A DNA stretch of 64,000 bases. Source: Patescibacteria group bacterium (lineage in GTDB: Bacteria; Patescibacteriota; Minisyncoccia; Phycocordibacterales; UBA9973). A program made the translations under genes and the position numbers. Numbering within the stretch: the stretch's first letter is position 1; each line of letters begins with the position of its first letter. The notes beneath the pieces are model-generated. The model was not told the DNA's origin, ran no database searches, and saw only the letters and a list, made by a program, of their open reading frames with translations. Location of the stretch: the NCBI GenBank assembly GCA_038063535.1, contig JBBTUV010000004.1, positions 20,530 to 84,529 of the forward strand. Direction: 5' to 3'. Positions 1,137-62,627 of this stretch are shown piece by piece.

Positions 1137-1460
1137 GTGAGTAGGTTCGATACATTTCTCGTTAACTTAAACAGGGAGATCATAAATCCTCTGATACTCC
1201 TTCTCTTTGCGCTGGCGGTCGCCATTTTCCTCTTCGGCATGCTTCAGTTTTTCCTAAGCGCGGCGAATGATGAGAAGAAAACTGCCGGCAAGCAGCACAT
1301 GATTTGGGGAGTGATCGGGATGACGATAATGATGGGGGTGTTCTTTATCTTAAACCTGATACTCGGCACGCTGAATATTTCTAAGGGCGAAATAGATCCG
1401 GCTAACCCGGGCGGCGTGAATCTCAAAGAATACACTCCTCCGCCGTTCCCGCCGCAATAA
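1137..1460 (+). CDS. Divergent T4SS-pilin-like small membrane protein
   Basis: 107-aa ORF with a GTG start 2 nt after the previous stop. It has the same two-helix/charged-loop layout (LLLFALAVAIFLFGMLQFFLSAANDEKKTAGKQHMIWGVIGMTIMMGVFF) and a Pro-rich tail. Confidence 0.5.
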   Translation: MSRFDTFLVNLNREIINPLILLLFALAVAIFLFGMLQFFLSAANDEKKTAGKQHMIWGVIGMTIMMGVFFILNLILGTLNISKGEIDPANPGGVNLKEYTPPPFPPQ

Positions 1461-1471
1461 TCCGTCCTGAA

Positions 1472-1513
1472 ACGAAGAAAGGGAGTCTCGAAGGAGACTC
1501 CCTTTTCGTTTTC
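1472..1513. terminator. Bidirectional intrinsic terminator between convergent genes
   Basis: Perfect 12-bp stem AAAGGGAGTCTC (1478-1489) / GAGACTCCCTTT (1494-1505) with a GAAG loop, extended by ACGA/TCGT. It is flanked by A-run and T-run sequence. It sits between the stop of 1137..1460 (+) and the stop of 1533..1967 (-). Confidence 0.7.
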
Positions 1514-1532
1514 TGTAAACCTCCTTTCCAAT

Positions 1533-1967
1533 TTAGGGCCACATAATGACCTGGACCCCTGTGGCCGAAGGATCTTCAGGGCGCCACTTCCATTTTCCGG
1601 CCGGGCATCCTCGGTCCGGCTGGTCAACACCGGGGGTGTCGACGTACGGTGCGCCGCAAGGCGGTTCAACGTAAACGCTACCGCCCTTCGGATAGATCCA
1701 CACCTTGCGCGGGAGGTTTTTCTCAATCTCCCTCCCGTATTCCGCAAACGTGAAGAGTGAGTCCGTAGGACCCACCTTCACTTGCCGGGTGACTTGCCCG
1801 TACGTCGCCGGAGCGGGCACAGAGTCATGCTGCTGGCCCGTACCGAGATCCGGCGTGTCGTCGCCAGGACGGAAAACGAGGAAACCAGTGAAGATGATTA
1901 TGCCGGCGATAACTGCCGTTACCACCCACACTGCACTCTTCCTGCTTGTTGAAGTTGCCATGGTCAT
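1533..1967 (-). CDS. Hypothetical single-pass membrane protein, downstream partner of the SPFH gene
   Basis: 144-aa ORF with an N-terminal TM helix (VWVVTAVIAGIIIFTGFLVF) followed by a Pro/Gly/Cys-containing soluble domain. Its start overlaps the SPFH stop by 4 nt (1964-1967), which suggests translational coupling. Confidence 0.5.
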   Translation of the reverse strand: MTMATSTSRKSAVWVVTAVIAGIIIFTGFLVFRPGDDTPDLGTGQQHDSVPAPATYGQVTRQVKVGPTDSLFTFAEYGREIEKNLPRKVWIYPKGGSVYVEPPCGAPYVDTPGVDQPDRGCPAGKWKWRPEDPSATGVQVIMWP

Positions 1968-2866
1968 TTTCCCCTTATTCCTGCTGCAAACCTGCCGATG
2001 ATCTCAGCGGCAATAGGGTCCAGCGATATGTCCTTGCGGTCGATGGTCTTCGTGGCTTTCTCCGTCGCGAGCTGGACTTGTTCTAATGCCTGCTCCCGGG
2101 TGAGCCCAGCGCCACCCTCAGCCTTTGGAGCCTGAAGGAGATTGATCATCTCGGCGCCGAACACGATCTCCACCCTCTGTCCTTTCCGCTGATAGGTCTC
2201 TCGCTCTTGAAGAGCTAGATCCTTCGCTACCTCGGGGTCAAGGGTGATCTCCGGCATGATGACTTGCCGAATGGTGACACCCCAGTGCTCCTCGCTTGCT
2301 TCACAGAGAGCTTGTTCCACTTCCTTGCCGAGCTCCTCATGCATGCCCAACACTTCCTCTTGATGTTTTCCCCGGATGCTCTTCCTGAGAATTTGCTTCC
2401 GGGTACTCTCGAGCCACCCGTCAAGGTCATCGGGGACGACGCTGAAGTATGTGTCAGGGTTGGTGATGGCATAGACCACCGATCCACCAATGGTGACGTT
2501 CACGTTGTCCTTCGTGAGAGCCTGAAGGGGGGTGAAGTTGTGGGTTTGCCTTCGGCAATCCGCCGGCTTCTTCGAGAAGGGAAGCGGAGTCCACCACCAC
2601 CCTTCAGTGAAGACAATGCCCGGCACTCGCTGCCCAAAGAGCAGGAGTTGTGCTTTCCAGCCGACTGGTACTTCCTTCCATCCAATGTCGTGCCATGTTC
2701 CCCAGCCCTGCCATGCCCAGGCCACAATCGCCGCCAGCCAAAGCAGGCGTAGAAGGCTGAGGTCTGAGAACACGGCCCAACCCAGGATCAAGAGGACCAC
2801 AACAAAACCAATCCCCAAGATCCGGTTGATACCCAAGTGACCTTCTCTCTCTTCCGTGTGTGACAT
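1964..2866 (-). CDS. SPFH/band-7 (stomatin/prohibitin-like) domain membrane protein
   Basis: An N-terminal Trp-rich double TM region is followed by an SPFH-like core (TKDNVNVTIGGSVVYAITNPDTYF ... WGVTIRQVIMPEITLDPEV). The start is moved to ATG 2866 (MSHTEEREGH) because AAGGAGA lies 7 nt upstream. The 47 extra codons in the track ORF (to 3007) look non-coding. Confidence 0.75.
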   Translation of the reverse strand: MSHTEEREGHLGINRILGIGFVVVLLILGWAVFSDLSLLRLLWLAAIVAWAWQGWGTWHDIGWKEVPVGWKAQLLLFGQRVPGIVFTEGWWWTPLPFSKKPADCRRQTHNFTPLQALTKDNVNVTIGGSVVYAITNPDTYFSVVPDDLDGWLESTRKQILRKSIRGKHQEEVLGMHEELGKEVEQALCEASEEHWGVTIRQVIMPEITLDPEVAKDLALQERETYQRKGQRVEIVFGAEMINLLQAPKAEGGAGLTREQALEQVQLATEKATKTIDRKDISLDPIAAEIIGRFAAGIRGK

Positions 2867-3041
2867 CGTTTCATCTCCTTGCGCCCGAGGCGCGTTTGTG
2901 TGCGCCCCGCTGAGCGCGGGAAATTGTGTGACAGAGTTGTCACGGTTAGCGGGCAAGGGGGTCGAAAGGGGATTGCAACCACTTAGCCCGCCAACCGTCC
3001 AATTCAATTAGAAAGGATTTCAATGTGCTAAATTCTCAAAT

Positions 3042-12194: not shown

Positions 12195-14006
12195 ATGGAA
12201 ATTAGAAATATAGCTATAATCGCCCATGTGGACCATGGCAAGACCACTCTAACCGATGCTCTAATGAAGCAAAATGGAATACTCTTGGATGAGGGAGTGT
12301 CTATGGACTCAAACGCTCTGGAAAAAGAGCGCGGTATTACTATATATTCCAAAAACACATCAATCTATTACAAGGGTACAAAGATAAACATCGTAGATAC
12401 TCCTGGCCACGCGGATTTCGGAAGCGAAGTGGAACGCGTTTTGCGAGCCATTGATTCGGTACTTCTTTTAGTGGACGCCGTTGAAGGTCCCATGCCTCAA
12501 ACCAGGTTCGTTCTGAAAAAATCTTTAGAGCTGGGACTCCAGCCGATTGTGGTTATAAATAAGATAGACAAGTCAGCTTCAGATCCGCACCGAGTGCACG
12601 ATGAAATTCTGGGATTGTTTTTTGAACTGGGTGCTTCTGAAGAGCAAGCAAATTTTGAGACGATTTATGCTATTGGGCGAGAGGGGAAAGCCTTTAAAAA
12701 TCTTGGTGATACGTCGGCAGACCTGTCTCCACTGCTAGACTTGATTCTAGAAAAAGTTCCACCAGCTTCAAAGAAAGAAAATGAAAAGATGTCGGCACAG
12801 GTTTTCAACTTAGCTTATGACAATTTCCTAGGCAGAATGGCAGTCGCGCGAATTTATTCGGGTCAAATGAAATCCCCCGCCGCTGTTTTTGTGAAGGGCG
12901 AGAAGGGAAGTCGTGCAGGTAAGATCACGAAACTTTTTACCTTCGAGGGAATAAGCAGGAAAGAAGTCGAGAAAGCTTTATCGGGCGACATAGTGCTCTT
13001 GGCTGGTATTCCAGACATATATATCGGTGAGACCATTTGTGAAGATGAAACGGTAGAGGAAATGCCACACATTGCTATCGACGAGCCGACGCTCTCACTC
13101 AATTTTTTGGTTAACGACTCTCCATTTGCTGGTCGGGAAGGAAAGTTTGTAACTTCAAGACAGCTTAAAGAAAGATTAGAAAAAGAACTTGAGATAAATG
13201 TCGGTCTTAGAATCAATTTTTCACCGGATCAGGGTGAAAAAATGGGGCCGAGCTTTTTTAAAGTTTACGGTCGCGGTGAATTACACATTGCTATCCTTCT
13301 CGAAAATATGCGACGCGAAGGATTTGAAATGCAGGTTTCGGAACCAGAAGTAATTATCAAAGAGAATGATGGCGAGCTTGTCGAACCATATGAAGAACTA
13401 GTTATTGACGTACCTGTAGAATCAAGCGGAAGCGTTATTGAAAAAATTGGCAAGCGTAGAGGCATCATGAAAGACATGGTAGAGAAAGAGGGCATAGCTC
13501 GAGTTATTTTTGATATCCCAACTCGCGGACTTCTGGGGTATCGTAGTGAGTTTATCATCGACACCAAAGGGGAAGGTATCATGTCTTCTCGTGTCACTGG
13601 CTTTCGAAAGTACGCAGGGGATATAAATAAGCGCGAATTCGGCTCGATGGTTTCGATGGTGTCCGGCAAGGCAGTCACCTTCTCCCTTGCAAATTTACAA
13701 GAACGTGGTATTATGTATATCGAGCACGGAGCCGAGGTATATGAGGGCATGGTCATAGGGAACGTGTTAAAAGGGGAGGATATGTCAGTAAACCCTACCA
13801 AAGGCAAGCAGCTTACCAACATGCGTGCTTCCGGTACCGATGAGGCTTTGTTTTTAAAGCCTGCTTTTACTTTAAACATAGAAAGGGGCCTAGAAGTTAT
13901 GAATAGAGAAGAATATCTCGAAATCACTCCCGAGTCCGTGAGACTTCGCAAAAAGTACCTCACCGAACTAGATCGGACAAGGCAGGGGAGGCAAAGCAAG
14001 AGATAG
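12195..14006 (+). CDS. typA: Translational GTPase TypA/BipA
   Basis: 603 aa. [31 protein letters not shown] and a BipA-type C-terminal domain. Confidence 0.9.
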
Positions 14007-46416: not shown

Positions 46417-47400
46417 CTAAATTTCTAGGCTACTTTCAAATTTTTTCTTCAGAGTGCCGAGTTTCATTCCCGCATTAAGAAGATGACCTATTGATACTTT
46501 GGTTAAAAACGCTTCAGATAACTTTTTCTGTATATAGAACTCTACGCCATGAAGTACGATGCCGAAAATGTAACAATGCATTGCTCCTAATAAAGCAGAT
46601 TTTTCTTCTTTGCCTAATTCTCTGACGGTCATATATCCTTTATATAAACTTCGTAGCTTTGCGAAATCAAACCTCCCATTACTGTATCCGAACCAAACAA
46701 GCGCGCCCCCTAGATCAAGCACGAGAGGCCCCTTGTATGAGTTATCAAAATCCACCACCCCAGTAAGTTTCTTGCCAGAGAATAGAACATTGCTGGGACT
46801 AATATCTAGGTGCATTGCACCATTTGGCAAACTACGGGGCAATTTGTATTTAAATGCGTCTCTCTTTATGAGAGATATGGCTTTTTTTATCTTTTGATTA
46901 GAAATATTTTTCCCGGCCTTTACGGTATAATTTATTTTTTTCTCGGTAATGGAGTACAACTTCACTCTGCTGATTTTTGAATTAAAATTTTCTGTTTGTA
47001 TATGCAATTTACCCAAAAACACCCCAATTTCATATGCCATTTTCTCATCAATATTATCAGCTATATATCCTTGCAAATATTTATAAAGCATCGTTTGGTG
47101 TTTTTCGTAAAGAACTAGATATCTATCGTTTTGAGCCTTTATTAGTTTAGGTGTCGGAAGTTTTTTTATTTTATTTAGGAGTTCGACTTCGTATTTAACA
47201 CGATGAGGGTTGTTTCTGACAGCAATTTTCAAAATGAAATACCCTTTTGTTGTTTTCACTTTATAGGCATAGTTTGCCACCCCTCCCTCAAGTTTTTTGA
47301 AATTTATTAATCTGCCAAGCCCAGGATATTGCCTTAAATGCTTTTTGAGTGTTTCAAAAGTAAAAGCTGGTGCTTTAAGAATGTTCTCTCGAATCTTCAT
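46417..47400 (-). CDS. Aminoglycoside-phosphotransferase/homoserine-kinase-II family kinase
   Basis: 327 aa. A Gly-rich loop region (LEGGVANYAYKV), FILKI, the catalytic HLDISPSNVLF and VVDFDNS. It is clearly more AT-rich than the flanking genes. Confidence 0.65.
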   Translation of the reverse strand: MKIRENILKAPAFTFETLKKHLRQYPGLGRLINFKKLEGGVANYAYKVKTTKGYFILKIAVRNNPHRVKYEVELLNKIKKLPTPKLIKAQNDRYLVLYEKHQTMLYKYLQGYIADNIDEKMAYEIGVFLGKLHIQTENFNSKISRVKLYSITEKKINYTVKAGKNISNQKIKKAISLIKRDAFKYKLPRSLPNGAMHLDISPSNVLFSGKKLTGVVDFDNSYKGPLVLDLGGALVWFGYSNGRFDFAKLRSLYKGYMTVRELGKEEKSALLGAMHCYIFGIVLHGVEFYIQKKLSEAFLTKVSIGHLLNAGMKLGTLKKKFESSLEI

Positions 47401-49517: not shown

Positions 49518-50465
49518 ATGAAAAAAGTGTTTTTATCGGGGATTCAGCCCTCCGGCAAGCCGCATATCGGCAATTATTTCGGAATGATAAAGCAACTTCT
49601 TGAGGCACAGGGAGAGTATGATGTCTATGCCTTAGTCGTTGACTACCACGCGCTCAAGTCGATACAGAGCCTCGAGGAGATGAAACAAAACATCATTGAT
49701 GTCACGCTCGACTACCTGGCGCTTGGCCTCGACCCAAAAAGAGCGATATTTTTCAAGCAGAGCGACGTGTCCGAGCATACCGAGCTGGCCTGGATTTTCG
49801 ATACCATTACCACCATGCCGTACCTCATGCGGGCGCATGCTTTCAAAGACGCGGAAGCCAAAAATAAAGAAATAGATGTTGGCACCTTCAATTATCCTAT
49901 GCTTATGGCCGCGGATATCCTGCTCTATGCTCCCGACGTAGTGCCGGTCGGCGCTGATCAAAAACAGCATATCGAGATCGCCCGCGACACTGCTCTTAAG
50001 TTCAACAGAATCTATGGAGAGACTTTTAAAATTCCGGAGGCAATGATCCTCGAGAATGTGGCAGTAGTGCCTGGCACGGACGGGCGTAAGATGTCGAAGA
50101 GCTACGGCAACACGATTCCGCTATTTGCCGAGTATGAAGAGATAAAAAAATGCGTGATGAGCATCGTTACCGACTCAGGAGAGGGAATCCCGAAGAATGT
50201 TTTTGAGATTCATAAATTGTTCCGTACAGAAAGTGAATTAAAAAAGATTTATGAGAGCAAAGCAGGGAAGTATCAAGAACTAAAAGAGGCGCTCATAGAA
50301 GACATCGAAAAATTTGTCGCACCAATGCGGGAGAAGAGAAAAAAACTTGAGAAAGACATACCTGTAGCGTTAGCAGTACTAAAGGAAGGAGGCAAAAAGG
50401 CCAAAACCGTCGCTTCGGCCAAAATGGATGAAGTTCGCAAAAAAATCGGGGTGCACGTTTACTAA
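49518..50465 (+). CDS. trpS: Tryptophan--tRNA ligase
   Basis: 315 aa. The HIGH motif reads GKPHIGNY, GADQKQHIE is present, and the KMSKS motif reads KMSKS. Confidence 0.9.
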   Translation: MKKVFLSGIQPSGKPHIGNYFGMIKQLLEAQGEYDVYALVVDYHALKSIQSLEEMKQNIIDVTLDYLALGLDPKRAIFFKQSDVSEHTELAWIFDTITTMPYLMRAHAFKDAEAKNKEIDVGTFNYPMLMAADILLYAPDVVPVGADQKQHIEIARDTALKFNRIYGETFKIPEAMILENVAVVPGTDGRKMSKSYGNTIPLFAEYEEIKKCVMSIVTDSGEGIPKNVFEIHKLFRTESELKKIYESKAGKYQELKEALIEDIEKFVAPMREKRKKLEKDIPVALAVLKEGGKKAKTVASAKMDEVRKKIGVHVY

Positions 50466-50466
50466 T

Positions 50467-50757
50467 ATGAAAAGTAATTCGAAAGAATATAAAAAGGAAA
50501 TCGTGGAGGTCCTTTCCAGGGTAGGGGATAAGAGGGCCTTAATGCGGGATTTCATTGAGGACCTTTTAACTCCGCATGAATTTGAGAACATTGGTTTTCG
50601 CTGGCAAATAGTGAAGCGTTTAGCGAAAGGAGAAACTCATCAATCTATCGCAGAAGATCTGCGCCTTGGCGTAAGCACGGTGACTCGGGGTTCTCGAGAG
50701 ATGCGTAACAAGGAAGGGGGCTTTCATAAAGTTCTCCGGCTTCTCAAGCTGGAATAG
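50467..50757 (+). CDS. TrpR-related YerC/YecD-family DNA-binding protein
   Basis: FIEDLLTPHEFENIGFRWQIVKRLAKGETHQSIAEDLRLGVSTVTRGSREMRN matches the Trp-repressor-like HTH pattern. The start is set at ATG 50467, 1 nt after the trpS stop (the track ORF starts at 50428 inside trpS). Confidence 0.7.
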   Translation: MKSNSKEYKKEIVEVLSRVGDKRALMRDFIEDLLTPHEFENIGFRWQIVKRLAKGETHQSIAEDLRLGVSTVTRGSREMRNKEGGFHKVLRLLKLE

Positions 50758-50833
50758 GTAGAAAAAGAAAGGGCAAGGGAACAGCGAGGTTATCCACACC
50801 TTGCTTTTTCTGCCCTTGACTTCTCCCACTATT

Positions 50834-50855
50834 CCATACTAGTATACTAGTATGG
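50834..50855. promoter_or_regulatory. 22-bp perfect palindrome, trp-operator-like (ACTAGT-N2-ACTAGT)
   Basis: CCATACTAGTA|TACTAGTATGG is its own reverse complement. TTGACT lies at 50816-50821, 18 nt upstream of the embedded TAGTAT. Operator function is inferred. Confidence 0.5.
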
Positions 50856-51045
50856 CAAGGATAGAAAGAAACGGAACGGAAATAAGTTCTAAAGGGAAGT
50901 GGTGGAGCGCAAACACACTTGTTTTTGCGTCTATCTTTTGATTTCTCTTTATTTTCTAAACTAAAAAAGGAATCCAAAAATCGGCGCATGAGCGTCGATT
51001 TTGTTCTTTAACAGTATACATAAACCTAAACAAAAAGGAGAAGAC

Positions 51046-52482
51046 ATGAAAATAGTTTCAGTTGGTGGACGCATTAAGTCAGCAAGTGTGGGACTTGATG
51101 TGTTCGTGCCGGGGAATGATAATTTCCAGACGCAGATGAAGCAGGCGCGAGACAACCCTCCGATGCCAATCTTGAGCGCATTCTTTCCTTCAGACAAAAA
51201 CCGTATGAAGCAAATGATGCAGGGTATCGGCTTCTATCGCCCGATGCTCAAGACAGATCAAGGAATGGGCGGAAACTTTCTCCCGTTCTACGTAGACCCA
51301 GTTCTAAGGACAACAGACCTCTCGCCCCGGCAGATCGTCCGAGAAGAGGGTTTGATCATCCCTGAACTCTACCTGGAGCATGACCCAGGGACACTTCAAG
51401 AACTTCGGGAAACGTTCCAAAGATTAGATCTATGGAACGCTGACCGGATTCTCACTCCACTACTCACGCAGTCCCGCGAAGCGGAGAAAGGAAGAACACC
51501 GTTCTTCTTTATCCGCCCAGCCTTGCTTTCGTCACCAATTGTGTTTGGTGATGACATCGTGAAGAAGGTCAACGAAGTTGTAGGACAGTTGCTGAAAACA
51601 GTTGAAGACCATGCGACCGGAAAGGCGGGCTTCAACCAAACAGGCAACTATCTCTACTTTCTCGCGGACGTATTCGTGACGACTGAAGGCGAGGTGGTAG
51701 TCGAGAAACTCCACTTCCCCGATGTCGGATTCTTCATGAGTGAGTTGGAGCTCAAGGACTCGATCGCTTTCGAAACTCAAGGTGTAGTACGCCAGATTCT
51801 AGATCAAGTTTTCGGACGGGTTCTAGGTATGGTCAACTCTCGGGTGGTCTACATAATCACTCGAGATGAAGTACTACAACGAAACGAGGATGTTTTGGAA
51901 ATCTTCGAGATACGAAGCATCTCTCGTAAGTTCTGTGAGGCGGGCATTCAGGTAGAAGTACGAAGTGTCAGCCAGGCGGGAGAAATTCCTTCTGGAGCAA
52001 CCTGTCTGCTTCTCAACATAGCCGAACACGGCTCTGTACTCCTAGAGCGCTACGGACGCGGAGAACTCGTCTGCTATCCGAGCCCGTATCTCCAGTTGGC
52101 ATCACGTGAGTTGACGGGGCTGAGAGAAAGCGTCGTTCCCCGCCAGTTCATGAGCAAGTTCATCAGTCTCATCGACTGTAGTCCGAAAGAACATGAGGAT
52201 GCCGAGACCGTAGTGTCAAAAATCAACGTTATACTTTCAAAAGATGGAGTTGTCTCGGAGCTACTTCATGTTGAAGTTGACGGCGAAACTGTTCCTGTCC
52301 ACCGAAGGATTCACCACTCGTGGAAGCAGTTGGTGAAAAGAGTTCACAGACATAGGGGTGATAAACCTCTTGAAGATGTAGCTCTCAAAATCCGCGAGCT
52401 TCCACTCACGCATCGGAACAGTATGGTAACAAGTACCACTGGTCCAAGGCTCCATGTGTTCAGGTTTACGTTTACTGCTTAG
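51046..52482 (+). CDS. Orphan 478-aa hypothetical protein (possible ATP-grasp-like fold)
   Basis: The start is set at ATG 51046 (MKIVSVGG) with AAAGGAG 5 nt upstream. No TM was seen. The segment YLYFLADVFVTTEGEVVVEKLHFPDVGFF loosely resembles the xDxxxxxxGxxxxxExNxxP strand of ATP-grasp/GSP-synthetase-like enzymes. Codon usage is unlike neighbouring genes. Confidence 0.5.
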   Translation: MKIVSVGGRIKSASVGLDVFVPGNDNFQTQMKQARDNPPMPILSAFFPSDKNRMKQMMQGIGFYRPMLKTDQGMGGNFLPFYVDPVLRTTDLSPRQIVREEGLIIPELYLEHDPGTLQELRETFQRLDLWNADRILTPLLTQSREAEKGRTPFFFIRPALLSSPIVFGDDIVKKVNEVVGQLLKTVEDHATGKAGFNQTGNYLYFLADVFVTTEGEVVVEKLHFPDVGFFMSELELKDSIAFETQGVVRQILDQVFGRVLGMVNSRVVYIITRDEVLQRNEDVLEIFEIRSISRKFCEAGIQVEVRSVSQAGEIPSGATCLLLNIAEHGSVLLERYGRGELVCYPSPYLQLASRELTGLRESVVPRQFMSKFISLIDCSPKEHEDAETVVSKINVILSKDGVVSELLHVEVDGETVPVHRRIHHSWKQLVKRVHRHRGDKPLEDVALKIRELPLTHRNSMVTSTTGPRLHVFRFTFTA

Positions 52483-52525
52483 TCTCCGATTAAATTATGG
52501 AGACAGAAAAGGAGGTATCAAGGAC

Positions 52526-52560
52526 GGGGGCTCGTTCATTGCAACAGCCCCCAACCTTTT
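52526..52560 (+). terminator. Intrinsic terminator after the 478-aa gene
   Basis: GGGGGCT (52526-52532) pairs with AGCCCCC (52546-52552) across a 13-nt loop, followed by AACCTTTTTA. Confidence 0.5.
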
Positions 52561-52599
52561 TATGTTAAAATTAACAATGAGTAAATTTAAATATAAAAA

Positions 52600-53010
52600 A
52601 TGAAAAATCTTGCGGAAATAAAAAAAGAAAACATGTGGCGCGCAGTAATGTCTCAAATTTACAAAGCAAAAAAGGAAATTTTAGCCACTATGGATATAGC
52701 TGAAGAGCTAAAAAATCCTTTACCTAAAAAATATTTTTCTTTATTATATAAAAAACACAAAGAAGGTATTAAAATTAAACGAGTAATTTTTGGTTCCACA
52801 AAACAATATAAACATTTATTAAAAGAAGCTGTAGATAAGAATTTGTTTTTTATAGGCAAACATACAAAATCAACAAATTATAAAAGGATGATTCTTATTG
52901 ACCGAAGCAAACTTTTTTTCTCCAGGGGGCATGGAGGTAAAAAAAAGTTTTATTTCACAACTGATGAGATCTATCTGAAGGAATATCTGGATTATTTTAA
53001 TGAGATATAG
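52600..53010 (+). CDS. Hypothetical 136-aa Lys-rich protein, very AT-rich gene
   Basis: This is the only long ORF in this stretch. There is a weak resemblance to TrmB C-terminal/PLD-like domains (KRMILIDRSKLFF). No HTH was seen. Confidence 0.4.
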   Translation: MKNLAEIKKENMWRAVMSQIYKAKKEILATMDIAEELKNPLPKKYFSLLYKKHKEGIKIKRVIFGSTKQYKHLLKEAVDKNLFFIGKHTKSTNYKRMILIDRSKLFFSRGHGGKKKFYFTTDEIYLKEYLDYFNEI

Positions 53011-53061
53011 AGTTTTCCGCAGGTGCTTGTCAAAAAATGAAATAACTGATACAGTTAAAGA

Positions 53062-53612
53062 GTGAGTAAAAGTACACAGCCGAAGAATGTTATCCTTGCC
53101 AGCCTTTAATCTAGAAGGCTGATCTTTGCGCTGTAAAAATCTCTCAACACTTACAACCCAAACACCAGCCTTCTAAACCTAGAGGCTGGTGTTCTCGTTT
53201 ACGAGAATAGTTGTTCTTCCCAAGCTCCGAAAGAGAGACAATAATGCCCAAGTCGTCCAGTTTGGAAGAGTGGTTCGTAGGGGCAATCAGATCGGGGAGA
53301 GACTTTCTGACTGTGCCTCCCCACATCACGGAACTTCCGTGCGGGCATCGACGAGCCCGCACTGATAGACCCTTCGAATTACGAAGGATACTGTTCCAGC
53401 TGGTTTGGGCCCACCACAACAGAGAACACCAGGGTCAGGGTTGTTTCTTGCCTCTGTCTTCAATTCTTCGGGAGAGCAATCTCCCGGAGAGAACAGACCA
53501 GCAGGAACGACCCCGTTACATGGCCGACGTTGGACGACCACGCTGAGTTCCGCCAGTGCAAGCAGTATGCGGAACACGGGGGGCTGTCGCGCGCGACAGC
53601 CCCCCTATTATT
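53062..53612 (+). ncRNA. Candidate structured non-coding RNA of unknown class
   Basis: There is no credible CDS here. The sequence is GC-rich with at least 8 local hairpins, including an 11-bp GCAA-tetraloop helix (53465-53490). A long-range helix is possible between 53252-53260 and 53530-53538. A promoter-like TTGTCA-N17-TGaTACAGT lies at 53027-53055. The stretch ends at the 53578-53605 terminator. The 5' end is uncertain; an alternative start is near 53252. Confidence 0.4.
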
Positions 53613-53619
53613 TTTTATT
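53578..53619 (+). terminator. Strong intrinsic terminator
   Basis: GGGGGGCTGTCGCG/CGCGACAGCCCCCC is a perfect 28-nt inverted repeat at 53578-53605, followed by TATTATTTTTTATT. The T-run is on the plus strand only. Confidence 0.75.
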
Positions 53620-53649
53620 CCGCTTTTTTTATGCTAAAATACTTTTACC

Positions 53650-55071
53650 GTGAAAAAAAGGATTTATATAAAAGATTTGAAAGACAATGTCGGCAAAGAA
53701 ATCACCATCGCCGGGTGGGTGGATGTCAGGCGCGATCAGGGCAAAATGGTATTTTTCGATATGCGGGATATGACGGGTAAGGTGCAGTGTGTGGCACTAC
53801 CAAGCCATGCCGAAGTAATTGAAACGGCGAAGGAGATAAGGCCGGAGTGGGTTTTGAAGATCATCGGGAAGGTAAACAAACGGCCGGAGAAAAATGTAAA
53901 CAAAGAAGTGCTAAATGGCGACATTGAACTTGAGATTACCAGCATCGAAGTTTTAAATAAATCTGAAACGCCGCCGTTTCCGATTGATGCTGACACTCGC
54001 GAAGTGGATGAAGATTTGCGTCTGAAGTACAGATATCTTGATCTAAGGAGCGACAGGATGCAGAAAAATGTCCGCATGCGCGACAAGGTTATTTCTTTTT
54101 TCCGCGACCACATGCACCAGAACGGCTTTGTCGAGATAGAAACCCCGATACTTATGCGCGGTACGCCTGAAGGCGCGCGCGAGTACGTAGTGCCCTCGAG
54201 GGTGTGGCAGGGAAAGTTCTATGCTCTGCCGCAATCGCCCCAGCAGTTCAAGCAGCTCTCGATGGTTGCCGGCTTTGAAAAATATTTCCAGATTGCTCGC
54301 TGCATGCGCGATGAGGACACAAGAGGGGACAGGCAGCCGGAATTCACCCAGCTCGACTATGAGATGTCATTCGTCGAGCGCGATGAGGTCCTGGAATACA
54401 CTGAAGGTATGTTCATTAAATTGATTGAAAAAGTTTATCCGGAAAAGAAAATTTCACAAATTCCGTTCCCGCGGCTCACTCACGCTGAATCAATGGAAAA
54501 ATACGGTTCGGACAAGCCGGACTTGCGTAAAGATAAAAACAATCCCGACGAGCTTGCATTTCTCTGGGTTGTTGATTTCCCGATGTTTGAAAAGACTGAT
54601 GAGGGAGACCCCGCAACGCAGGCTAACGGGGCAAGATTACAAGCGGTGCACCACCCTTTCTGCTCGATTCACCCGGAGGACAAGGAGAAATTCATGAAAG
54701 GCAAGGACATTTTCTCTATCCGCGCGAATGCTTATGACTTGGTCTTAAACGGCTACGAACTTTCTTCCGGCTCGATCCGCATCCACGACAGCGCCGAGCA
54801 AAAGAGGGTTTTTGATTTGCTGGAAATCAGCGAAGAAACTCAAGCAGCGAAATTCGGCCACATGCTCGAGGCTTTCAAATACGGCGCGCCGCCGCATGGC
54901 GGTTTTGCGCCCGGCATCGACCGCATTGTCATGATTCTTCAAAATGAACCGAATATCCGCGAAGTGATTCCTTTTGCCAAAACCGGCGAAGGCAAGGACC
55001 TCCTCATGGGCTCGCCGGCTGAAATTTCCGATAAGCAATTGAAAGAGTTGGGAATAAAATTAGGCAAATGA
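53650..55071 (+). CDS. aspS: Aspartate--tRNA ligase lacking the GAD insertion domain
   Basis: 473 aa with a GTG start. An OB-fold N-domain, the motif 2 region FYALPQSPQQFKQL...FQIARCMRDEDTRGDRQPEFTQLD, and motif 3 GGFAPGIDR. DKPDLRKDKNNPDELAFLWVVDFPMFE joins directly where bacterial enzymes carry about 130 aa. TGcTAAAAT lies at 53632-53640. Confidence 0.9.
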   Translation: MKKRIYIKDLKDNVGKEITIAGWVDVRRDQGKMVFFDMRDMTGKVQCVALPSHAEVIETAKEIRPEWVLKIIGKVNKRPEKNVNKEVLNGDIELEITSIEVLNKSETPPFPIDADTREVDEDLRLKYRYLDLRSDRMQKNVRMRDKVISFFRDHMHQNGFVEIETPILMRGTPEGAREYVVPSRVWQGKFYALPQSPQQFKQLSMVAGFEKYFQIARCMRDEDTRGDRQPEFTQLDYEMSFVERDEVLEYTEGMFIKLIEKVYPEKKISQIPFPRLTHAESMEKYGSDKPDLRKDKNNPDELAFLWVVDFPMFEKTDEGDPATQANGARLQAVHHPFCSIHPEDKEKFMKGKDIFSIRANAYDLVLNGYELSSGSIRIHDSAEQKRVFDLLEISEETQAAKFGHMLEAFKYGAPPHGGFAPGIDRIVMILQNEPNIREVIPFAKTGEGKDLLMGSPAEISDKQLKELGIKLGK

Positions 55072-55376
55072 TTCGCGACATTGTCAGAAAGGGCAGGGGA
55101 TACGGTAAGAAGATTGGATACCCGACGATAAATATAAATAATAAATCTAAGATTAAACACGGAGTATATGCGGGAGTTGTGCGGCTCGGTAAAAGAAATT
55201 ATCGAGCTGGGATAGTGATAGGGGAAAATGCGGAAGCGTATTTGGTGGGGTATAGAGGTAATGCATATGGAAGAACGGCAACAATGGAAGTGGGCAAATT
55301 CATCCGCAAATTTAAAAAATTTAAAACCGAAAAAGAATTAATCGCACAAATTAAAAAAGATCTAGAGAATGTCTAA
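55068..55376 (+). CDS. Stand-alone riboflavin-kinase-like domain protein
   Basis: 102 aa. GRGYGKKIGYPTININ...HGVYAGVV...EAYLVGYRGNAYGR...FIRKFKKFKTEKELIAQIKKD fits the RibF C-terminal kinase pattern. The ATG overlaps the aspS stop (ATGA). Confidence 0.6.
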   Translation: MIRDIVRKGRGYGKKIGYPTININNKSKIKHGVYAGVVRLGKRNYRAGIVIGENAEAYLVGYRGNAYGRTATMEVGKFIRKFKKFKTEKELIAQIKKDLENV

Positions 55377-60890: not shown

Positions 60891-62627
60891 ATGGAGGCAC
60901 AAACTAGAAAGTGCCAGAATTGTAAGCACGACTTCACTATCGAGCCCAACGATTTCGGTTTCTATGAAAAAATAAAAGTTCCCCCGCCGACATTTTGCCC
61001 TGATTGCCGAAGGCAAAGGCGTTGGGCTTGGAGAAACAATGTTTCGCTTTACAATCGCAAGTGCAATCTCTGTGAAAAATCTGTTATCTCGATCTATGCG
61101 CCTGATTCAGGGCTTACTATTTATTGCAATAAATGCTGGTGGAGCGACAAATGGGATCCGAAATCCTACGGCGTTGACTATGATTTTTCTAAACCTTTTT
61201 TCACGCAATTTCGAGAACTTTTACAAAAAGTTCCGCAAATGGCAATTGTAAATGACGACGGAATTGCATCGCTCAATTGCGAATACACGCATGATTGGTG
61301 GTTTTCTAAAAATTGCTACATGTGTATCTCGGGGTGGCACACAGAAAATACTATGTATAGTCACTTTATACTTGCAGGCAAAAATATGGTGGATTGTAAT
61401 ATTATTCGATCAGAGAGCGAATGGCTTTATGAATGTTTTATGTGTTCACATTGTTATCAAGTTAAAAACTCTGAATACAATCTTGCGTGCATAGATTCAC
61501 AATTCATTTTTGACTGCAGGGATTGCTCAAATTGTTTTATGTCATATGGGCTTCGTGGAAAAAAATATCATTTTAAAAATAAACTTTATTCTAAAGAACA
61601 GTACGAAGAGATTATAAAAAATTATAATTTAGATACTTGGGTTGGGGTTGAACAAGCTCAAAAAGAATTTGATTTATTTCTTCTTTCTTATCCTCGCAGA
61701 TTTACTCAAATTTTTCAGAGTCTCAACTGCACGGGCAACCTCATTTCTCAAGCAAAAAACTCAAAAAATTGCTTTATAGTAAAAAACGCAGAAAATTGCA
61801 GCTATTGTGATTATGTGGGAGACACTACAAAAACCACAAAGGATTGCTATGACCTTACGACCTCGGGGGGCTTGTCAGAAAGTTATGAGGGAATGGTTTT
61901 GGATCATTCCCAGCTAAATCTATTTGGAGTTTTTTCGGTCAAAAGCCAAGATATTCAATATACCCAGCATTGCCACAATGTGAAGCACGCGATTGGTTGC
62001 GTGGGGGTTCGGAGTTCAAATTATTGCATTTTCAATAAGCAATACACAAAAGAGGAGTATCAGAGACTTTTACCGAAAATTATAGAGCACATGAATGAGA
62101 TGCCATACACAGATAAGCAGGGGATAGAATATAAATATGGCGAATTTTACCCGATTGAACATTCGCCGTTTGGTTATAGCGAAACATTTGCACAAACACT
62201 TGTGCCATTAAAAAGAGAGGAAGCGCTAAAGAGGGGATACAAGTGGCAGGATAATATCCAGCGCACGACAGGGAAGGAAACTTTGAAGCCTAAGGATATT
62301 CCCGAATCAATCAATGACGTGAAAGACGATATATTAGAAGAAGTACTCGCCTGCATCGATTGCGGAAGAAATTACAAAATTGTCGTGAACGAACTCAATT
62401 TTTACCGAAAAATGAACATCCCGATCCCGCGCCGCTGTTTTCACTGCCGGCACGCCACGCGCCTGGCGCGGCAGAACCCGCTCAAGCTCTGGCACCGGCA
62501 GTGTATGTGCACCCTAGAAACTCATGACCACAGGGATAAATGCCCAAATGAATTTGAGACCAGCTACGCACCCGACCGACCAGAGATGGTTTACTGCGAA
62601 AAGTGCTACCAGAAGGAGGTATATTAA
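60891..62627 (+). CDS. Cys-rich protein with duplicated terminal zinc-ribbon modules and a Cys-repeat core
   Basis: 578 aa with more than 45 Cys. The N-terminal module (CQNC...FYEKIKVPPPTFCPDCRRQRRWAWRN...YAPD...IYCNKC) is homologous to the C-terminal module (CIDC...FYRKMNIPIPRRCFHCRHATRLARQN...YAPD...VYCEKC). The centre carries about 12 xNC/xDC repeats. The gene is AT-rich. Confidence 0.6.
   Translation: MEAQTRKCQNCKHDFTIEPNDFGFYEKIKVPPPTFCPDCRRQRRWAWRNNVSLYNRKCNLCEKSVISIYAPDSGLTIYCNKCWWSDKWDPKSYGVDYDFSKPFFTQFRELLQKVPQMAIVNDDGIASLNCEYTHDWWFSKNCYMCISGWHTENTMYSHFILAGKNMVDCNIIRSESEWLYECFMCSHCYQVKNSEYNLACIDSQFIFDCRDCSNCFMSYGLRGKKYHFKNKLYSKEQYEEIIKNYNLDTWVGVEQAQKEFDLFLLSYPRRFTQIFQSLNCTGNLISQAKNSKNCFIVKNAENCSYCDYVGDTTKTTKDCYDLTTSGGLSESYEGMVLDHSQLNLFGVFSVKSQDIQYTQHCHNVKHAIGCVGVRSSNYCIFNKQYTKEEYQRLLPKIIEHMNEMPYTDKQGIEYKYGEFYPIEHSPFGYSETFAQTLVPLKREEALKRGYKWQDNIQRTTGKETLKPKDIPESINDVKDDILEEVLACIDCGRNYKIVVNELNFYRKMNIPIPRRCFHCRHATRLARQNPLKLWHRQCMCTLETHDHRDKCPNEFETSYAPDRPEMVYCEKCYQKEVY

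Follow-up and report, generated by a model that had tools for sequence, protein, structure and literature searches.

Gene X, at 51046..52482 on the forward strand of the 64-kb stretch of DNA analyzed here (the window), begins with an ATG and encodes a 478-residue protein whose predicted fold resembles that of ATP-grasp ligases and of the LanB glutamylation domain. On the best reading of our analysis, X supplies the catalytic activity of X-Y, a conserved module of two proteins whose second member is encoded just downstream. On balance, we consider it probable that X-Y is a ligase module that is induced by tryptophan starvation, acts on tryptophan or tRNA-Trp, and belongs to a starvation regulon of Patescibacteria. 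Our results suggest that these tiny symbiotic bacteria carry out an as yet undescribed reaction linked to tryptophan or tRNA-Trp. The apparent control by a TrpR operator and a Trp-codon leader is here applied to two unnamed proteins, not to tryptophan biosynthesis. X-Y raises the question of how an ultra-small bacterium responds to the exhaustion of tryptophan or of charged tRNA-Trp. In what follows, the candidate enzyme, its partner, and the regulatory elements are mapped at base resolution.

X was first described as an orphan protein devoid of transmembrane helices and of a P-loop. The latter two points hold, as the peak 19-residue hydropathy is 1.21, indicating a soluble protein with no transmembrane helix, and the sequence has no P-loop. 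The term "orphan" does not: one search returned 73 homologous clusters and an exhaustive one 82 representatives. These relatives, about 80 in all, come largely from Patescibacteria and are all unnamed. X and its relatives have no match in Pfam, NCBIfam, or any PDB sequence in single-sequence and profile searches, and a search of X with 69 relatives yielded no Pfam or NCBIfam match at E values up to 1. A profile made from a 63-sequence alignment and run against 5.8 billion proteins recovered members of the family alone, none of them annotated in Pfam. There is no support for assigning X or Y to known defence or phage proteins, as neither matched anything in PADLOC, PHROGs, Pfam, NCBIfam, or PDB sequences. 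The family spans lengths of 478-580 residues and diverges to 23% identity. Its alignment shows R65, Q72, D208, D226, D282, E285, N324, and R473 to be invariant, and R9, K11, D71, G73, G76, E107, R150, and R273 to be nearly so.

The AlphaFold2 model of X (pLDDT 94.4, pTM 0.93) has a complete two-lobed ligase architecture, and a Foldseek search with it matched human glutathione synthetase (E 9e-6) and NisB (E 1e-5). Judged by three-dimensional fold, the modeled protein falls in the GSP-synthetase/eukaryotic glutathione-synthetase branch of the ATP-grasp ligases, and it likewise has the fold of the tRNA-dependent glutamylation domain of LanB. About 80% of X superposes on this domain of the LanB dehydratases, in which the ATP-grasp core is elaborated in the same manner; by published homology, this elaboration extends to the PEARL peptide-aminoacyl-tRNA ligases. 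An ATP-grasp fold had been hinted at in the original prediction on the basis of one segment. That segment does hold the invariant D208 and P225-D226 and the mostly conserved E220. According to the model, however, the top structural match is a LanB/PEARL-type aminoacyl-tRNA-dependent domain, a class that the prediction had overlooked. At the level of sequence profiles, hhalign comparisons (global and local) of X with E. coli YgiC, YjfC, and Gss gave probabilities below 1%, and the Pfam Lant_dehydr_N/C families matched neither X nor its 69 relatives.

The Mg-ATP ligands of the ATP-grasp branch form the constellation R-x-D ... E-x-N, with Lys/Arg residues for the phosphates. The X family has partial candidates for it: D208 and D226 never vary, E220 and N/H223 are kept in most members, and R9, K11, K69, and R473 are conserved. 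By analogy to known motifs, D208, E220, N/H223, and D226 may ligate Mg, and R9, K11, K69, and R473 may contact phosphates. The arginine of the ATP-grasp R-x-D motif is absent or unconserved at the corresponding position, and the use of ATP by X is thus unproven. Alternatively, X might be an ATP-independent, LanB-like transferase, shuttling the aminoacyl moiety of Trp-tRNA-Trp to (or from) an acceptor that offers a hydroxyl or an amine, with Y presenting that acceptor or the tRNA. We regard this scheme as unlikely. The higher Z to LanB might seem to favor it, but neither fold search had a solved PEARL structure among its matches, and the score is thus non-discriminating. Further, a Mg-nucleotide site would be expected to show just such features as the invariant D208, D226, D282, E285, and N324, several invariant Arg/Lys residues, and a Gly-rich loop, and the X locus has neither an elimination domain nor an elimination partner.

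The genetic context of X links it to tryptophan. The local Trp cluster begins with trpS, encoding tryptophanyl-tRNA synthetase (49518..50465, forward strand; 278 bits to NCBIfam TIGR00233, cutoff 176.75), followed by a gene for a TrpR-like repressor (50467..50757, forward; 54.9 bits to Pfam Trp_repressor, PF01371, gathering score 27). The latter protein attains 42.7 bits to NCBIfam TIGR01321, under the equivalog cutoff of 67.25. Mechanical ORF calling puts its start at 50428, but in locus L001 the homologue begins at the residue aligned with the ATG at 50467. A terminator-like hairpin with a T-run (50783..50805, forward; consensus scan) ends the trpS-trpR unit. The gene order trpS-trpR-X-Y recurs in L001 and L006.

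A consensus scan also located a promoter-like site (TTGACT, an 18-nt spacer, TAGTAT) at 50816..50845 of the forward strand; L001 has the same -35 sequence, TTGACT, and its -10 element lies within the operator. From this site, the putative 5' UTR of X measures about 194 nt, in good agreement with the approximately 190 nt proposed before. Overlapping both the -10 box and the ATG of a leader ORF is a perfect 22-bp palindrome, CCATACTAGTATACTAGTATGG (ACTAGT-AT-ACTAGT; 50834..50855), that is presumably akin to the E. coli trp operator and would serve TrpR. It is the sole match to ACTAGTNNACTAGT with two or fewer mismatches in the 64 kb, and TACTAGTA cores 5' of X or of trpR were found solely where a TrpR-like gene is also present (five lineages). 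The Shine-Dalgarno sequence of X, AAAGGAG (51034..51040, forward), is placed 5 nt ahead of the ATG. It had been called strong and atypical for this DNA, and it is both: 52 of the 63 long ORFs in the window lack a match of at least 4 nt, and matches of at least 6 nt precede just 3 of them.

The leader ORF (MARIERNGTEISSKGKWWSANTLVFASIF, then a stop codon; 50852..50941, forward) has tandem Trp codons at 50900-50905. Directly 3' of these codons is hairpin P1 (GAGCGCAAAC...GUUUUUGCGUC; 50906..50931, forward), which appears in the RNAfold prediction and in the consensus structure of nine leaders. The 5' arm of the next helix, P2 (GAUUUCU / AGGAAUC; 50940..50974, forward), takes in the last two nucleotides of the leader ORF's stop codon, and all seven of its pairs are retained in nearly all of the nine related leaders (RNAalifold). 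The third element, P3, is a terminator-like hairpin (AAAAUCGGCGC / GCGUCGAUUUU; 50977..51009, forward) that is followed by UUUUGUUCUUU; this candidate attenuator terminator appears in the scan, RNAfold, and RNAalifold alike. In L001, the P3 stem is preserved by a two-sided change from G-C to A-U. Inspection of the L018 leader by eye shows a clear, mutually exclusive antiterminator candidate, as the 3' arm of its first hairpin and the 5' arm of its terminator hairpin are exact complements; the antiterminator pairing in the window's leader is an imperfect, moderately convincing 11 bp that constrained MFE folding did not select. Of the 28 lineages compared, 8 have an equivalent leader ORF with WW or WWW located 5' of X, against a background of 2% per 300-nt window (binomial P ~2e-8). 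Searches of Rfam produced no match at E<=0.1 over 16 kb, noise alone at E<=10 over the 5' UTR of X, and, with gathering thresholds, nothing 5' of X in the related loci; a T-box or other known riboswitch in this 5' UTR was therefore rejected. Together, the promoter and operator, the Trp-codon leader, and the terminators strongly support the earlier contention that X is separately regulated.

The small upstream ORFs invite another explanation, namely that the WW-containing peptide is the precursor or scaffold of a RiPP/"pearlin"-type pathway in which X, as a miniature PEARL/LanB, modifies or extends it with Trp-tRNA from the neighboring TrpRS. LanB enzymes are indeed the top fold matches of X, a small ORF occurs just 5' of X in eight lineages, trpS and tRNA-Trp adjoin X-Y in several lineages, and known PEARLs include some that attach Trp, taken from Trp-tRNA, to the C-terminus of a peptide (PMC11962472). 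Nevertheless, we judge this explanation to be highly improbable. Across lineages, the peptides have WW(W) codons in common but differ in length, in their C-termini, and in the position of the WW; WW(W) codons are all that they share. The ORFs overlap hairpins, are followed by U-run terminators, and co-occur with TrpR and its operator. Moreover, no recurrent cyclase, protease, transporter, export, or tailoring genes were present near X in the neighborhoods examined, the local TrpRS looks like a housekeeping enzyme, and the scarcity of Trp in X and Y befits starvation proteins.

The stop codon of X is followed by a hairpin with a T-run (GGGGGCU...AGCCCCC; 52521..52561, forward) in the X/Y intergenic region, in keeping with the previous assertion that the gene has its own terminator. 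Its loop, CUCGUUCAUUGCAACAG, is nearly invariant, its fold z-score is -4.2, and its stem is preserved in L006 through the paired changes GAGAG/UCCUC in the alignment. Beyond it lies Y (52600..53010, forward; GC 27.5%), encoding a 136-residue protein. A Y gene is found directly 3' of X in 21 of the 22 lineages with enough downstream sequence; in a single lineage (L010/L027/L045), a methyltransferase occupies this position. Structure prediction, performed with database sequences only, assigns Y the fold of a single domain of the phospholipase D (PLD) superfamily. The catalytic HxKx4D motif is absent; Y instead has the degenerate Y94-x-R96-x4-D101, with Tyr for His and Arg for Lys. In a 25-sequence alignment, Y94 and D101 are invariant and R96 is nearly so, and the motif was present in all eight further partners that were read. 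The protein is basic (pI 9-10) at 14 of 19 loci and acidic or neutral at the other 5, which weakens the case for a universal role in RNA binding.

The structures nearest to that of Y belong to pseudo-enzymes and ligand-binding domains (FAM83, TrmB). This fact, along with the apparently tight co-regulation of X-Y with trpS and trpR, could be accommodated by a regulatory, non-enzymatic function: without performing any ligation, X-Y might sense or buffer tryptophan or uncharged tRNA-Trp, or modulate TrpRS or TrpR in an anti-TRAP-like fashion. We find this quite unlikely, given that the charged residues of X remain invariant at merely 23% identity, as is typical of an active site, and that X, a large protein of 478-580 residues, retains the whole two-lobed architecture of a ligase.

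The census of tryptophan-related features covered 28 lineages that carry X. A TrpR-like gene is present in six of these lineages, and the co-occurrence of X and trpR-like genes is thus real. TrpRS is encoded within 2.5 kb of X-Y in five, and directly 3' of Y in three (L013, L019/L024, and L064). In L019 and L024, a tRNA-Trp(CCA) gene ends a few nt 5' of the X start codon. Thirteen of the 28 lineages have no Trp-linked feature in the available sequence. Trp-free proteins are common in both families (34 of 63 for X, 22 of 25 for Y); Trp makes up 0.82% of the window's proteome. Two further candidates were discarded: upstream ORFs of 90-102 codons in L002, L017, and L018, considered as hidden TrpR homologues, had no family matches, and the tRNA-Trp beside X carries G73, which sets it apart from the archaeal-type A73 tRNA described by Mukai et al.

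Genes for AstE/AspA-like hydrolases are close to X-Y in at least four lineages. They raise the notion of an ordinary amide ligase (e.g., peptide-polyamine or N-acyl-amino-acid) that is unrelated to tryptophan and works with an AstE/AspA-type deacylase, the Trp-related neighbors being inherited synteny. The RefSeq annotation of YgiC and YjfC as peptide-spermidine ligases and the 13 lineages without a Trp feature are consistent with it. We nonetheless deem it very unlikely, as four kinds of Trp-linked element (TrpR with its operator, WW leaders, trpS, and tRNA-Trp) recur in separate lineages, in varied arrangements and on both sides of X-Y (rough binomial P 2e-5 to 2e-8), and both X and Y are depleted of Trp.

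X had also been proposed to be horizontally acquired, with a foreign codon signature. Its base composition and codon bias are ordinary: GC is 0.489-0.495 compared to 0.496 for the window, and its excess codon-usage divergence ranks 15th among 63 ORFs. Foreignness by either measure was therefore rejected. TCA, CTA, and TTA make up 3.35% of its codons (median 1.9%; rank 10 of 63). Oligonucleotide statistics, along with phylogenetic incongruence, rescue part of the claim. The tetranucleotide correlation of X with the window is 0.35-0.38, making it the second-lowest region (sliding-window mean 0.78, sd 0.11), and its dinucleotide odds are likewise outlying (e.g., AC/GT 1.02 vs 0.69 in the window; GC 0.74 vs 1.14). 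The antisense frames are chopped, as was observed earlier; no more than 88 codons stay open in a row (a fraction of 0.18 compared to a median of 0.45, the second lowest of 63). The gene order trpS-trpR-X-Y-aspS recurs in relatives that are about 70% identical. The X proteins of the window and L005 are 94% identical but their adjacent TrpR proteins only 62%, and the TrpR proteins of L005 and L006 are 85% identical. These sequence identities indicate that the leader and X were probably exchanged as a cassette among related genomes. Horizontal acquisition is thus half supported: the native-like GC and codons and the common synteny speak against it, the atypical oligonucleotide signature and the signs of cassette exchange between relatives for it.

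Under the favored reading of a starvation-induced ligase, Trp-bound TrpR would repress the transcription of X-Y, and transcription would be attenuated unless ribosomes stalled because charged tRNA-Trp was short. X-Y would accordingly be made at low tryptophan, which fits the near-absence of Trp in both proteins. Going by the chemistry of its fold relatives, X would most likely use ATP to form an acyl-phosphate on a carboxylate, followed by coupling to an amine or hydroxyl nucleophile. Either tryptophan or the 3' terminus of (Trp-)tRNA-Trp may be one of its substrates, and Y would be a non-catalytic subunit that binds substrate or RNA. Counting against this reading is that the benefit of an enzyme that consumes Trp-tRNA being made during a shortage of Trp is not obvious.

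A more specific and more tentative proposal, possible but in our view doubtful, is that X-Y is related to the PEARL/LanB enzymes but serves primary metabolism, acting directly on tRNA-Trp in tryptophan starvation, with the PLD-fold Y holding the tRNA. It might, for example, (re-)charge or transfer tryptophan by ATP-grasp acyl-phosphate chemistry; alternatively, Trp-tRNA-Trp might be used to build a starvation-specific product. PEARLs and LanBs derive from the GSP-/glutathione-synthetase branch of the ATP-grasp proteins, and PEARLs use ATP and aminoacyl-tRNAs, including Trp-tRNA (PMC11117183, PMC11962472). The origin of LanB/PEARL in that branch was traced as late as 2024, and an ATP-grasp-to-PEARL intermediate was postulated (PMC11117183). 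If the proposal is true, X would be a living example of that intermediate and the first tRNA-linked enzyme of its fold outside of natural-product biosynthesis. Structurally, the X family stands between the glutathionylspermidine/glutathione-synthetase ligases and the LanB/PEARL enzymes, i.e., as an evolutionary bridge, and a compact protein such as X, encoded among translation genes, could reveal how tRNA use arose.

The E. coli trp operon is controlled by a TrpR operator and the trpL attenuator. X-Y shares with this textbook system a repressor of the TrpR family, an operator-like palindrome (ACTAGT-NN-ACTAGT) across the -10 box, and a leader peptide with tandem Trp codons that is followed by a terminator. 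Unlike in E. coli, the genes controlled are X and Y, not those of Trp biosynthesis, the leader RNA has three helices, and the leader ATG is at the predicted transcription start; the leader may thus be leaderless. In a narrow literature search, we found no report of a control region combining a TrpR operator with a Trp-codon leader in Patescibacteria; Mukai et al. (2017; PMC5370408) noted operons headed by a trp repressor but did not describe leaders. These authors reported tRNA-Trp(A73)-ORF1-TrpRS-A1 operons in other CPR bacteria and interpreted them as regulated by Trp availability. X-Y occupies the same slot, that of an accessory two-gene module after a gene for tRNA-Trp or a trp repressor and before a bacterial trpS. 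The proteins of those operons lack Trp, and X and Y are similarly Trp-poor. The components differ: an archaeal-type TrpRS and a helical ORF1 in one case, an ATP-grasp/LanB-like X and a PLD-fold Y in the other, and the tRNA-Trp beside X (L019, L024) has the bacterial G73 discriminator instead of A73.

Compared to the pseudo-PLD proteins (the DUF1669 of FAM83 and the ligand-binding domain of TrmB/TrmBL2) and the Nuc/NucT/Zucchini nucleases, Y has YxRx4D in place of HxKx4D and is a stand-alone protein of 105-150 residues encoded beside X. X, at 478 residues, is about half the size of the PEARLs (TglB, BhaB_C-Trp, AmmB2) and LanBs (NisB, MibB, MadB, TbtB, GodF), which have approximately 800-1000. 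It lacks an elimination domain, is not recognizably similar to them in sequence, and has an obligate PLD-fold partner; it is found amid housekeeping translation genes under Trp control, whereas they reside in natural-product gene clusters. The LanBs have lost the use of ATP. The "short PEARL-like" proteins of PMC11117183 are set apart from the X family by search route, having come from BLAST with a PEARL query, by which the X family is unreachable. X also shows no profile-level similarity to Gss, YgiC, YjfC, trypanothione synthetase, or eukaryotic-type glutathione synthetase. It differs from the GSP-synthetase family in missing the Arg of R-x-D and in bearing the extra C-terminal elements that it has in common with LanB, and the partner protein and regulation by Trp are unique to the X family when it is compared to the GSP-synthetase/glutathione-synthetase family.

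X, a 478-aa protein, is encoded at 51046..52482 on the + strand from an ATG start and possesses neither a Walker P-loop nor a hydrophobic stretch able to cross a membrane; in these respects the original prediction is confirmed. Its description of X as an orphan, on the other hand, is refuted. One search of 5.8 billion proteins returned 73 homologous clusters, and 82 relatives emerged when 1.84 billion representatives were scanned exhaustively with HMMER, all of them unnamed "hypothetical proteins". The genome-derived relatives are labelled Patescibacteria, Saccharibacteria, Nealsonbacteria, Uhrbacteria, Parcubacteria or Gottesmanbacteria, and a few others come from MAGs labelled Legionellales, Gammaproteobacteria or Bdellovibrionales. 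No member of the family matched Pfam, NCBIfam or the PDB sequences, and a 63-sequence X profile recovered the X family alone. At identities down to 23%, P48, R65, Q72, D208, P225, D226, F230, D282, L284, E285, N324, P347 and R473 are invariant, and R9, K11, D71, G73, G76, E107, R150 and R273 are nearly so. This set of residues looks like an active site. The invariant charged residues also weigh against a regulatory or non-enzymatic role for X and its partner Y, a reading that we disfavor.

The AlphaFold2 model of X (69-sequence alignment; pLDDT 94.4, pTM 0.93) establishes its fold relationships. The best structural match is the glutamylation domain of lantibiotic dehydratases (LanBs), and ATP-grasp ligases of the glutathionylspermidine-synthetase and eukaryotic glutathione-synthetase (GS) types rank next (YgiC 11.8, GspS 10.8, trypanothione synthetase 10.2, yeast GS 9.7). 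Foldseek searches with the model agree (human GS, E 9e-6; NisB, E 1e-5). X could be an ATP-independent, LanB-like transferase, but we consider this less likely than an ATP-dependent ligase. A 2024 proposal derives both LanBs and the peptide aminoacyl-tRNA ligases (PEARLs) from the glutathionylspermidine-/glutathione-synthetase branch of ATP-grasp enzymes; in PEARL chemistry, ATP phosphorylates a peptide carboxylate, which is then coupled to the amine of an aminoacyl-tRNA, and one characterized PEARL uses Trp-tRNA (PMC11117183, PMC11962472). The dual structural likeness of X fits this proposed descent. The segment in which an ATP-grasp resemblance had been predicted, NYLYFLADVFVTTEGEVVVEKLHFPDVGFF, contains D208, E220, D226 and H223, a position at which most relatives have Asn. 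Set beside YgiC (R-L-D...E-N-N-A-D-T-P), it looks like a candidate Mg-binding motif, though single residues are inserted and the Arg is missing. hhalign detected no profile similarity to YgiC, YjfC or Gss. X belongs to a real, conserved and uncharacterized family, a variant of the ATP-grasp/LanB-PEARL superfamily whose obligate partner is new.

That partner, Y, is a 136-aa protein of the phospholipase-D (PLD) fold encoded at 52600..53010 (+). A Y homolog lies immediately 3' of the X homolog in 21 of the 22 lineages whose sequence continues for 500 nt or more downstream, often overlapping X or falling within 10 nt of it, which demonstrates the pairing. In the exception (L010/L027/L045, with a Legionellales label in one genome record), the gene right after X encodes a SAM-dependent methyltransferase in place of the PLD-fold partner. 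Fourteen of 19 loci encode a basic Y. The GC content of Y in the window is 27.5%, compared to 49.5% for X and a window mean of 49.6%. In a comparison of the window with L001, L005, L006, L009, L013 and L017, this large drop recurs (0.51 to 0.23 in L001; 0.43 to 0.20 in L006); the low GC of Y is a persistent feature, not a recent insertion. Between X and Y, a hairpin at 52521-52561 has a near-invariant 16-nt loop, CUCGUUCAUUGCAACAG, and a stem preserved in L006 through paired changes. Because this conservation exceeds what a plain terminator needs, the hairpin may be bound by a protein or RNA, or may serve as a processing site. In the 640 nt between Y and aspS (53011-53649), the ORFs on the two strands are all short and overlap; Rfam gave no match, and the stretch ends in a terminator-like hairpin whose GC-rich stem has 12 bp (53578-53605). 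AstE/AspA-family deacylases (zinc hydrolases) are encoded close to X-Y in at least four lineages, on the same strand in L008 (4390-5235), L017 (9231-10166), L025 (2361-3008) and L028 (7725-8498); L028 also has a GNAT acetyltransferase and a class II aaRS nearby. The recurring deacylase may point to an amide product that is hydrolyzed later.

Upstream of X lie trpS and a TrpR-family gene (Pfam, 54.9 bits). A terminator-like hairpin follows trpR, and then a promoter-like TTGACT-18-TAGTAT, whose -10 box is enclosed by a perfect 22-bp palindrome, CCATACTAGTATACTAGTATGG (50834-50855), the single such site in 64 kb. The palindrome is nearly identical to the E. coli trp operator (ACTAGT-NN-ACTAGT). 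At its edge begins a leader ORF (50852-50941) encoding MARIERNGTEISSKGKWWSANTLVFASIF. Directly after its two Trp codons comes a hairpin. The next helix, also conserved, shares bases of its 5' arm with the stop codon of the leader; beyond it lie a terminator hairpin and its U-run, the Shine-Dalgarno sequence and X, in that order. Rfam searches of this region found no known RNA family. The leader ATG (50852-50854) directly abuts the right operator half-site (ACTAGT-ATG), as it does in L001 (2634-2636). Since it lies about 7 nt past the -10 box, the mRNA from which the leader peptide is translated may be leaderless.

These elements recur. We surveyed 64 related loci from genomes and metagenomes which, with the window, represent 28 lineages; the binomial P values given here are rough. 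ORFs encoding WW or WWW occur within 350 nt 5' of X in 8 of the 28 (P ~2e-8, given a background of 2% per 300-nt window), for example MKSWWSANTLVFASIF, MKHLSFLSWWKILDDRTRW, MSLKTQTIELFWWWRSK, MQKTDLTSVIRFFWWHC and MTRISKNIVWWNAD. One could suppose that such an ORF encodes a RiPP precursor or pearlin, the substrate of X. We disfavor this notion: these peptides have nothing but Trp codons in common, their ORFs lie within terminator structures, and genes for tailoring or export do not recur. TrpR-like genes, whose co-occurrence with X had been proposed as a check, are present in 6 of the 28 lineages (P ~2e-8), and the operator core TACTAGTA 5' of X or trpR is restricted to lineages carrying one. 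L001 has four copies of the core in longer palindromes (TCAGCATACTAGTATGCTGA), before trpR (2159), twice before X (2534, 2627) and before a ribF-like gene downstream of aspS (7851), which hints at a small TrpR regulon. trpS is found within 2.5 kb of X-Y in five lineages (P ~2e-5 for at least four), upstream in the window's clade and directly 3' of Y in L013, L019/L024 and L064; the match in L044 is weaker and on the opposite strand. In L019 (6133-6207) and L024 (4308-4380), the gene for tRNA-Trp(CCA, G73) stops a few nucleotides short of the X start codon; the order is tRNA-Trp-X-Y-trpS, and tRNA 3' processing would leave an X-Y-trpS message starting almost at its AUG. A terminator-like hairpin and T-run, read by eye, precede this tRNA gene. 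In all, 15 of the 28 lineages have at least one Trp-linked feature. Both proteins also avoid tryptophan, which is absent from 34 of the 63 X and 22 of the 25 Y sequences (window proteome, 0.82% Trp). The signs that tryptophan starvation controls the X-Y family are clear, and four independent kinds of Trp-linked neighbor, in differing arrangements, speak against a small-molecule ligase with no tryptophan connection, which we likewise disfavor.

The original prediction also viewed X as foreign and horizontally acquired. Its Shine-Dalgarno sequence (AAAGGAG, 5 bases 5' of the start) is indeed atypical: X is one of just 3 of the window's 63 long ORFs with a match of at least 6 nt, and because 52 have no Shine-Dalgarno-like sequence at all within 20 nt of the start, the organism seems to initiate translation mostly without one. 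The antisense frames of X are chopped as predicted (the longest open run covers 88 codons, and relative to gene length only one of the 63 ORFs has a shorter one). The foreign codon signature holds in part. GC content (0.49 versus a window mean of 0.496), excess codon-usage divergence (rank 15 of 63) and the share of TCA+CTA+TTA codons (3.35% versus a median of 1.9%) are ordinary, but the dinucleotide odds differ from the window's, and the tetranucleotide profile correlates with the window at only 0.35-0.38 (sliding-window mean 0.78, sd 0.11). The sole other region with so atypical a tetranucleotide profile is 1400-3000 (ORF 1964-3007, minus strand; 0.29-0.36). Other low-GC ORFs in this 0.50-GC window are 46417-47400 (-; 0.35), whose codon-usage deviation is second only to that of Y, 55068-55376 (+; 0.38), 60891-62627 (+; 0.40) and 12195-14006 (+; 0.44). 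X is no recent arrival in the window's clade, given the synteny trpS-trpR-X-Y-...-aspS common to the window, L001 and L006, with X ~70% identical. Acquisition in another sense survives: relatives have evidently swapped a leader+X(+Y) cassette, judging from three comparisons. GC stays steady for X (~0.43-0.51) and Y (~0.20-0.28) in loci ranging from 0.36 to 0.50; the window and L005 share 94% identity in X but 62% in the adjoining TrpR, and the TrpR of L005 is 85% identical to that of L006; and L005 (875-1176) has a recombination breakpoint between an L006-like operator region and a leader and X near-identical to the window's.

We propose that Trp-bound TrpR represses the X-Y promoter and that transcription is attenuated in the leader except when ribosomes stall over the Trp codons. 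A shortage of Trp or of charged tRNA-Trp would then induce X-Y. X would be an ATP-dependent ligase forming an acyl-phosphate, with tryptophan itself or the (Trp-)tRNA-Trp 3' end as one substrate, and Y a non-catalytic adaptor. A tryptophan-linked ligase module is the best explanation of X-Y, but our confidence is only moderate because the benefit of a reaction consuming Trp-tRNA during starvation is not obvious.

Other CPR bacteria have a different accessory pair, ORF1 and an archaeal-type TrpRS (Mukai et al., PMC5370408). It sits in the same slot as X-Y, with tRNA-Trp or a trp repressor at the head and the bacterial trpS after, and is also Trp-free, as X-Y tends to be. This "Trp slot" thus houses alternative modules, X-Y in some genomes and ORF1 with the archaeal-type TrpRS in others.
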